A stretch of DNA of 46,491 bases from Escherichia phage Chlobot: the sequence record PP925838.1, one strand, 5' to 3'. The position numbers and the translations under genes are program-made. The notes beneath the pieces are model-generated. The model was not told the DNA's origin. It saw only the letters and a program-made list of their open reading frames with translations, and did no database searches. Shown in pieces: positions 25,603-28,600 of the stretch; position 1 is the first letter of the stretch; every line of letters begins with the position of its first letter.

Positions 25603-28600
25603 TCAGCTGATACTGATACCTGCTGTGGATTTTTTCATCACCACAACCAGCAGATCGCTGATACTGGTTGTTGGTGTCCAGTTATTCGCTCCTGATGAAG
25701 ATACGGTGAATGTCAGTGTCAGCGTCCCCTGTCCGGCAGGCATATCTATAACTGAGGAAAATACGCCCTGAGCATCCGTCGTGGACTGATTAAAAATCTC
25801 CTGACCATTGCGGGTCACTCTTAACCGGCAGGTTGAATACCAGTATGACTGTTGGTTATTACTGTTGAAATTCTCATGCTTACCACCGCGGAATAACACT
25901 GGCGGTATCATGACCTGCCGGTCAAATTTCTGATCATCACTGATTCTTACCGTGATGGTGCCACTGGCATAACTGTTCGTGCGGGGGAAAGACTTGCTGA
26001 CCGTTTTGACAATATCGCCTTCAATCTGATTGGCTGACAGTTTCCCCTTAATCTGACAGTTTTCATTAATCGTGACATTGTTGAGCGTCCCTGAATTTGC
26101 ATTCACATTACCGCTGATATCCGCATTTTTAGCGGTCAGCTTTCCGTCTGGTGTCAGGGAAAATGCCGGCGGATTTCCACCGCTGGTAATGGTGGGAGCC
26201 GTCAGGCGTTTCAGGAACACGTCGTTCATGAATATCTGATCGCCCTGACCAACAAACATCGGTTTTGTGTTGCCATTCGCAGGATTAACCATCGCAATCC
26301 TGTCCGCCGCCAGCAGCACCTGACTCTGCATGCCGTCAGGGGTGTTCTCAATACCGGCACCAATACCCGCGATATAAAGGCGTCCGTCCTGCATCTGCTG
26401 CAGCTTCACAGCCCACATGCTGTTCAGGTTATTATTTGTATCAACCTGAACCTTCTGTATCTGCTGAATTGCAGCACTCTGGTCTTCCAGTTTCTTATTG
26501 ACGGTCTGCGTGATTTCATTGCTGACATCCGTAATGGACGTCCTGATTTCAGCCAGGTCAGGCGCAAGCTGACCGTTATCAATCTGCGTCCACAGCTCCT
26601 GAGCCAGATGGGTTTTCCCTATCTCGCCTTTGAAAAAATCCAGATAACCGGATGCATCATCACTCGGCTGACCAACAGCCTCCACGAATGCCGATTTGCC
26701 AACGGTGTTCACACTGCGGATATAAAAGTAATAATCATGGCCCGGTTTGATATTGATACTGGCGGCTATCCAGTACAGCGCCGTGCCAAGATAGCGTGCT
26801 GTGGTTTCAACCTGCCTGATATCCGCAATCCGCTTTTCCGAGAACCAGAACTCAAACTGTACCGTCGGGTCATAAAACGCAAGATGCGGCGTTGCAGTTA
26901 TCTGAAAATAGCCCGGCGTCAGCTCAATCCGCGACGGCGCTGCCGGTGCGGCGATCCGGAACGATACCGATGCCGGCTCGCCCTGCTGCCCCCGGGCATT
27001 TACTGCCCGGACTGTCAGCCTGTAGTTCCCCAGAGCCAGTTGTGTGAAGCGGTAAGTGGTTTCCGTCGTCCGGGCCGTGCTGACCAGCCACTCACTGCCG
27101 TCATCCGCTGTTACGGTCAGACGGAGCAGGAAGCTCACGCCCTTCACCACCTTCGGCGTGTCCCAGCGCGCCAGCACCTGATATTCCCCGCTGTCTGCGG
27201 TGACTTCGGCAGTCAGGTGCTGCACCGCTGGCGGCGTGACACCATTCACCGTGCCGCTCTGGTCGCCGTCAAAGTGCGCCCCGTTATCCACGATGGCTTC
27301 TTTTTCCGGTACATGCTGCACGGCGGTGATGGCATACGTGCCGTCGTCGTTCTCACGGATACTCACGCAGCGGAACAGGCGCTGGCGCAGCGTCGGCAGC
27401 TTCAGCCCCCACACGCTGTATTCAGCAACGCCGTCAGGAACACGGCTCACTTTCACCTTCACGCCGTCGGTGACGGACTGAACCTCCACGCTGACCGGAT
27501 TGCCACTTCCGTCAACCAGGCTTATCAGCGTGGTACCGGAGGATGGCAGCGTGATTTCACGGTCGAGCGTCAGCGTCCGGGTCTGGCTGTTTACCGCCAG
27601 CACGCGCCCGCCGATGCTGATACCGGCATAGTCATCATCACAGATTTCAATGACATCGCCCGGCACATGGCGAAGCCCTTCTGCGCCCACGCTGAAGTCC
27701 ACGGTCTGCGTTTCCAGCAGTTCTGTTTTAATCAGCCACAGCCCGGCGCGATGTGCCTGCCCCCGGCTGGTACAGCCAAAGGCATCCATCTTCGTGACAT
27801 TACGACCGTAACGGGCAATGGCCTGCGTGTCCTCCACAAGCTCTGTCGCCGTCTCCCAGCCGTTATTCGGGTCAATCCAGTTCACCTCAACGGCATTATG
27901 GCGGTCCTTCAGGGCGCTGAAGCTGTAGCGGAACGGCGCGCCATCATCCGGCATCACCACATTACTGCGGTTATAGGTCCACACCTTATCTGATGGTCGG
28001 TCCTGCACGAACGTCAGCGTCTGCCCGTTCCATACCGGCATACAGCGCATCGCCGAGCAGAAATCACTGAGCACATCCCACGCCTTGCGCTGTGTGGTCA
28101 GGTACGCATTACAGGTGATGCGCGGCTCCGTGCCGCCAAAGCCGTCCGGCACTGACTGGTCGCAGTACTGGCCGATGACATACAGCGCCCATTTATCCAC
28201 ATCCGCCGCACCAAGACGTTTCCCCATGCCGTAGCGCGGATGGGTCAGCATATCCCACAGACACCAGGCCATGTTGTTGCTGTATGCCGGTTTAAACGTT
28301 CCGTCCCAGATACCGCTGTATTGCCGCGTCTGCGGGTTATAGTTCGACGGCACCTGCAGAATGCGCCCGCGCAGATGATAATTACGGCTCACCTGCTGGC
28401 TGCCGAACTGCTCCGAATCCACCTGCACGCCGACCAGTGCCGTGTTCGGGTAGCCCTGTTTCACATCGATGATTTCGGTGTATGACGACCAGAGCGTTTT
28501 GTTCTGCAGCTGGTCTGTGGTGCTGTCCGGCGTCATCCTGCGCATCCGGATACTGAACGGGCGCGGCGGCAGGTTACCCACCACCACCGAGGCCAGATAC

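Follow-up and report, generated by a model that had tools for sequence, protein, structure and literature searches.

The J locus and its genomic setting

The window, by which is meant the whole stretch of 46,491 nucleotides analysed here, contains an intact gene J together with the genes for Lom, the side tail fibre and the tail fibre assembly protein (Table 1). The span that a first, sequence-only reading had flagged, 25603..26690, corresponds to the last 362 codons of J plus the stop codon. Pfam domains Phage-tail_3, FNIII-A_GpJ, Ig_J, Ig_J_second, Phage_Tail_Tip and Ig_GpJ_C were all found in the J protein above their cut-offs and in the expected order, with Phage_Tail_Tip at residues 872-1000 and Ig_GpJ_C, the C-terminal receptor-binding domain, at residues 1036-1160. 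The domain order, the identity of the core and the position of the gene all fit, and the protein is a member of the lambda gpJ family. By analogy with the solved lambda gpJ and A8 gpJ trimers (three chains per PDB entry), it would be expected to assemble as a trimer at the tail tip. Over its full length the gene is 99.6% identical in nucleotide sequence to J genes of E. coli prophages from several chromosomes. Phage 21 has a terminator annotated at the position equivalent to that of the hairpin lying 3' of J in the window. An antisense open reading frame of 461 codons also runs through J (26608..27993, plus strand, GC content 52-61%); this is most likely a chance open frame.

Table 1. Gene J, its four segments and the adjacent features of the window.
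Feature	Position	Strand	Details
Gene J, central tail fibre / tip attachment protein	25603..29085	(-)	Intact ORF, 1160 aa plus stop
J residues 1-800, hub domains and two FNIII/Ig domains	26686..29085	(-)	97-98% amino acid identity to five comparison phages
J residues 801-951, phage-21-type alpha-helical shaft and beta-prism fibre top	26233..26685	(-)	28 residues longer than in lambda
J residues 952-992, conserved central straight fibre block	26110..26232	(-)	41/41 residues identical to lambda; ends at the A8 graft position
J residues 993-1160, straight fibre base and Ig-like receptor-binding domain	25606..26109	(-)	A8/2H10/phi330 type
Terminator-like hairpin followed by a T run	25566..25585	(-)	Consensus scan and inspection; 17 nt past the J stop
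lom (Ail/Lom outer-membrane protein), directly downstream of J	24937..25536	(-)	Pfam Ail_Lom, E = 1.8e-118
Side tail fibre Stf, second adsorption organelle	21549..24878	(-)	1109 aa; Pfam phage_tail_N, Gp34_trimer, Collar
Tail fibre assembly protein Tfa	20980..21549	(-)	Pfam Caudo_TAP; 83% identity to lambda Tfa

The open reading frames 5' of J on the same strand correspond in size and order to lambda H, M, L, K and I, and the order J-lom-stf-tfa matches the lambda annotation. The Lom protein of the window is only 47% identical to that of lambda, which makes it another swapped module beside J. Where lambda has two open reading frames of 401 and 314 codons, the window has a single Stf, which is 93% identical to the Stf of phage 2H10 and whose tip shares only 62% identity with lambda orf-314. 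The side fibre of Ur-lambda binds OmpC. Within the tfa coding region there is a match to the Rfam family IS009 (21008..21206, minus strand), with 205 bits where the gathering score is 117. An open reading frame of 239 codons (20147..20866, plus strand) runs opposite to the tail genes in a stretch of 37% GC that lies between tfa and the integrase region; a Pfam search with its product gave no match, and it may be an accessory gene, or moron.

The lambda cos sequence, GGGCGGCGACCT, is found at 44576..44587 on the minus strand, and the segment beyond it (44588..46491) holds genes annotated in E. coli genomes as a GIY-YIG nuclease, a DUF1398 protein and YlcI/YnfO. Because cos lies about 1.9 kb inside the right end with these further genes beyond it, the sequence appears circularly permuted, and the window can be read as a whole lambda-like genome, reversed and circularly permuted, rather than one arranged from cos to cos or in prophage order.

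Mosaic structure of J

Alignment of the J protein of the window (1160 residues) with that of lambda (NC_001416, NP_040600; 1132 residues) using MAFFT gave 773 identities over the first 790 residues (97.8%) and 783 over the first 800 (97.9%). Identity then fell to 33% over residues 801-890, with 28 gap columns that represent a net insertion in the window, and to 59% over residues 891-951, before returning to 41 of 41 in residues 952-992 (lambda 924-964) and falling again to 45.7%, with 10 gap columns, over residues 993-1160 (lambda 965-1132). The sequence-only reading had proposed that the first 790 or so residues and one short block further on track lambda J, and the alignment bears out both. 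It had also taken residues 800-890 and the last 190 or so to be unlike lambda; the divergence is real, with two small corrections: the middle segment remains divergent up to about residue 951, and the tail that differs from lambda comprises about 168 residues. Near-identity to lambda across the C-terminus, the outcome that would have spoken against a non-lambda tip, was not seen.

The J genes of the window, lambda, phage 21, PhiR70_1, 2H10 and 434 were compared codon by codon, at the level of both protein and nucleotide sequence, the latter in blocks of 90 nucleotides. Residues 1-800 are encoded with 90-100% nucleotide identity per block. Over residues 801-960 the sequences fall into two types, one comprising the window, phage 21 (96% identity to the window) and PhiR70_1 (99%) and the other comprising lambda, 434 and 2H10 (47-48%), while residues 961-992 are conserved in the window and in all five comparison phages. 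In nucleotide sequence the conserved block is closer to lambda, 2H10 and 434 (identity 0.92-0.93) than to phage 21 (0.82), which suggests a crossover within this part of the fibre. The tip, residues 993-1160, shows yet another distribution, with 99-100% identity to PhiR70_1 and 2H10, 83% to phage 21, 48% to 434 and 46% to lambda; per block, nucleotide identity in the tip is 96-100% to PhiR70_1, 91-100% to 2H10 and 64-87% to phage 21. Matches of the J gene to many phages end at gene nucleotide 3041 or 3104, and these shared ends suggest that exchange has taken place repeatedly at a site immediately before the receptor-binding domain. J is thus a four-part mosaic of a lambda-shared core, a 21-type shaft, a conserved block and a tip of the A8/2H10/phi330 type. 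This pattern is not due to chance, as the same blocks are seen at the nucleotide level with sharp switches of parental type.

The solved structure of lambda gpJ allows these segments to be placed. Its alpha-helical shaft includes residues 809-861, and the variable middle of the protein corresponds to the shaft and the top of the beta-prism "central straight fibre", while the Ig-like receptor-binding domain enters LamB with four loops at its bottom (PMC11101478). By alignment to this structure, the 28 extra residues of the window would lengthen the helical shaft.

Individual relatives combine these parts differently. In PhiR70_1 (PV340577), whose record is that of a complete phage genome and names E. 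coli C as the host, J repeats the whole mosaic seen in the window, long shaft and tip included, with 96.6% nucleotide identity over the gene. The tip of 2H10 (NC_049950) is identical to that of the window over 167 residues, but its shaft is of the short, lambda type and its J protein has 1132 residues. Shaft and tip modules therefore assort independently, because 2H10 joins a short lambda-type shaft to a tip of the window type. No receptor data for PhiR70_1 or 2H10 were found in the literature, and a literature search for PhiR70_1 and for ECOR13 in combination with lambdoid phages returned nothing relevant. Lambda J itself (PDB 8iyk and 8xcg-8xck) shares with the window the core (98% over residues 1-800), the 41-residue fibre block, the domain order and the gene neighbourhood, but has a shaft shorter by 28 residues and a divergent tip that binds LamB; at 45.7% identity, the window tip is not of the lambda LamB-binding type. 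Phage 434 J (OL657227) has the same N-terminal 800 residues, but its shaft is lambda-type and its tip is distant. Although phage 434 has been described as targeting OmpC (PMC12502783), 48% identity excludes a 434-type OmpC tip for the window. The distance between the 434 and A8-type tips indicates that OmpC is used by at least two distant tip types.

Evidence on the receptor

The best match in the PDB to the C-terminal 362 residues of J is 9wca_J, "A8 gpJ 713" (E = 7.6e-175), which is identical to the window at all 167 positions of residues 994-1160, up to the last residue. A8 gpJ is lambda-like as far as ...KNADISG and then differs from the window at one position only, residue 993, which is asparagine in the window and serine in A8. 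This protein was constructed by joining lambda gpJ residues 1-964 to the C-terminus of a natural E. coli gpJ variant, with the aim of redirecting particles from LamB to OmpC (Brödel et al., Nature 2024, PMC11338833). Such gpJ variants were found using a lamB deletion strain, and delivery was assayed in lamB/ompC double-deletion cells supplied with 23 plasmid-borne OmpC variants, 21 of which worked with A8, with a second variant, 1A2, or with both (PMC11338833). Delivery by A8 varied with the OmpC variant supplied and reached 90% with the OmpC of MG1655 and with that of EDL933; with a suitable side fibre, A8 also allowed delivery into Klebsiella pneumoniae (PMC11338833). A preprint states that A8 recognises OmpC "rather than LamB" (bioRxiv 10.1101/2025.02.28.640725), and a PDB search with OmpC returned entry 9wcb, which contains three OmpC chains and three A8 gpJ chains, presumably as a complex. 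While the last 167 residues are the same, A8 gpJ is engineered and has a short lambda-type shaft, whereas the J of the window is natural and has the phage-21-type shaft with its 28 additional residues. The two also differ at some sites in DNA: the printed A8 sequence is about 95% identical to positions 26127..25603 of the window, in a machine-read text copy that contains scanning errors.

A second characterised tip is that of phage vB_EcoS_phi330 (PV189401), identified at 98.8% identity in a tblastn search of phage genomes with the tip sequence. Residues 994-1160 of the window match phi330 at 165 of 167 positions, the differences being N1037S and S1038T. When phi330 was spotted on 54 Keio knock-outs of outer-membrane genes, lysis was lost only on the ompC mutant, and chromosomal Plac-ompC restored its plaques (PMC12502783). 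LamB and OmpF do not substitute for OmpC in phi330, because the ompC mutant still had lamB and ompF. The same result on lamB+ cells deleted for ompC argues that LamB alone could not serve A8. An AlphaFold3 model of phi330 places two hairpins on OmpC (PMC12502783), and both predicted contact hairpins, corresponding to window residues 1071-1080 and 1133-1138 (ANNWTP), are identical in phi330 and the window. Outside the tip the likeness ends: the rest of the phi330 J protein is only about 78% identical to that of the window, and the genome backbone of phi330, a Pankowvirus that came from an EHEC strain, is a different one.

Phage 21 uses LamB as its native receptor (PMC11336670), and its J protein (OL657228) resembles that of the window in having 1160 residues and the long shaft, with the same 28 additional residues relative to lambda, but its tip is related rather than identical; at 83% identity, and with 29 positions substituted between residues 993 and 1160, the window does not have the phage 21 tip allele. 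The substitution I1025T, at the junction of fibre and receptor-binding domain, adds OmpC to the receptors of phage 21, and further changes add OmpF, so that one to four substitutions in J give two or three receptors (PMC11336670; bioRxiv 10.1101/2023.04.13.536812). The window tip has not taken this route to OmpC, since I1025 and V1026 are unchanged. Nor can the predicted contact hairpins serve to discriminate OmpC from LamB users, as they are identical in the LamB-using phage 21 and none of the 29 differences falls in them. Receptor choice is labile in the lineage of the phage 21, A8 and phi330 tips, because a tip 83% identical to that of the window uses LamB and gains OmpC by I1025T. Divergence from lambda is by itself no predictor of a change of receptor, and since the phage 21 tip uses LamB, the assignment made here rests on identity to characterised tips and not on distance from lambda. 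The earlier suggestion of a receptor other than LamB is upheld by the identity to the A8 gpJ tip, by the deposition of that tip with OmpC in 9wcb and by the requirement of phi330 for ompC; the reasoning behind it, from divergence to a new receptor, would not have sufficed alone.

It is almost certain, judging from these tip identities, that the receptor is OmpC, and the phage of the window would be expected to behave like A8 and phi330, that is, to be OmpC-dependent. With OmpC as receptor, it should need OmpC and be indifferent to mutations in lamB or malT. We give a probability of about 0.87 to the whole reading, namely that the window is a complete lambda-like temperate phage with a mosaic J whose tip binds OmpC, not LamB, and is triggered in a lambda-like manner. 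The remaining doubt, about 10-15%, stems from the assignment being made by sequence in a lineage that shifts receptor with few mutations. Two observations sit less easily with an OmpC-binding tip. Both the A8 chimera and 2H10 have a short shaft whereas the window has a long one, although the combination of long shaft and tip is known from the PhiR70_1 genome; and the predicted contact hairpins are unchanged in phage 21, so specificity is not explained by them.

A tip that still uses LamB despite its divergence, as in phage 21, would accord with the equal length, shared long shaft and 83% tip identity of a J protein whose native receptor is LamB (PMC11336670), and with retention in the window of the very isoleucine, I1025, whose change to threonine adds OmpC. 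Against this, a tip identical to that of the window works in lamB-deleted cells, is OmpC-dependent and has been deposited with OmpC, and phi330 forms no plaques on lamB+ cells without ompC; we regard continued LamB use as very improbable. Somewhat less remote, but still improbable, is a generalist tip that uses OmpC together with a second porin, LamB or OmpF, as do evolved phage 21 and lambda variants. The ease with which phage 21 acquires two or three receptors by one to four J substitutions speaks for such breadth, as do the many OmpC variants accepted by A8 and its delivery into Klebsiella pneumoniae with a suitable side fibre, but phi330 lost its plaques on a single ompC knock-out in which lamB and ompF were intact, and A8 delivery into cells lacking both lamB and ompC depended on the OmpC variant.

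The divergence of J could in principle also be without functional meaning if the gene were a decayed prophage remnant. Of 5,426 complete E. coli genomes, 4,650 contain homologues of J, frequently as multiple copies, and many of these prophages are likely defective. Decay is nevertheless the least credible of the alternatives, with hardly any probability left to it: the J reading frame of 1160 codons is intact with every domain present, the window retains the lambda cos, the lambda-like tail reading frames (H, M, L, K, I and J) and stf/tfa, its late region is 96-98% identical over more than 90% of its length to deposited phage genomes, and the divergent blocks of J match intact alleles in PhiR70_1, 2H10 and phi330, which is not what random decay produces.

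For an OmpC-binding tip, a mechanism can be outlined from the steps seen for lambda gpJ with LamB (PMC11101478), which the J of the window would presumably follow. The trimeric tip would most likely dock on the OmpC trimer, and the three receptor-binding domains would, by analogy with the lambda gpJ-LamB structures, insert their bottom loops into the porin trimer. The receptor-binding domains would then splay and the beta-prism fibre twist, the helical shaft would flip and partly refold, and the FNIII strings would detach, with the tube opening for exit of the DNA. As to what sets the choice of porin, one tentative and rather doubtful idea is that the LamB/OmpC switch lies in some of the 29 substitutions that separate the window from phage 21, and thus outside the two predicted contact hairpins, because these are identical in the LamB-using phage. 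If this were true, specificity would come from second-shell or inter-protomer residues or from domain dynamics, as proposed for I1025T, and not from contact loops. A weaker variant of this idea gives a role to the long shaft, which assorts independently and would set how easily receptor binding triggers ejection.

Distribution of the tip and the phage-borne porin

At 99% identity or more, the 525-nucleotide tip occurs in 295 complete-genome records of E. coli, and another 1,197 carry it at 95-99% (5,426 genomes searched), giving about 1,490 genome records at 95% nucleotide identity or more. Phage records carrying the tip at 95% amino acid identity or more number 43 and include many Stx1a- and Stx2a-converting phages as well as YYZ-2008, CP-1639, 2H10, Turner and PhiR70_1. 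The allele is thus common and has already been characterised both functionally and structurally, so it holds no new biology; in practice, the result is that the receptor of a very common prophage allele can be annotated with confidence. Choice of receptor bears on host range and on the route by which hosts become resistant. An OmpC-dependent lambda-like phage would be unaffected by malT or lamB mutations and would use a porin whose expression in the gut is reliable, and these properties are the reason why engineered DNA-delivery particles were given the same tip.

The window also carries an intact porin gene (2676..3773, plus strand; the listed open reading frame starts at 2616), on the strand opposite to the flanking late genes. 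Its product is 98.6% identical in amino acid sequence to the Lc porin of phage PA-2 (J02580) and 64% identical to K-12 OmpC. The gene occupies a position that, in the annotation of phage ev099, lies between a Q-like antiterminator and the holin. When Rfam was searched for a small RNA close to the porin gene, the only matches were IS009 and the lambda cIII thermoregulator. Phage PA-2 reportedly uses OmpC as its receptor, and its Lc porin is said to lower OmpC in lysogens; with an OmpC-binding J and lc in one genome, a phage could mask its own receptor. The porin does not travel exclusively with this tip, since only five of the 43 phage records that carry the tip are among the 41 porin carriers, some of which have instead a tip that is phage-21-type, 434-type or lambda-like.
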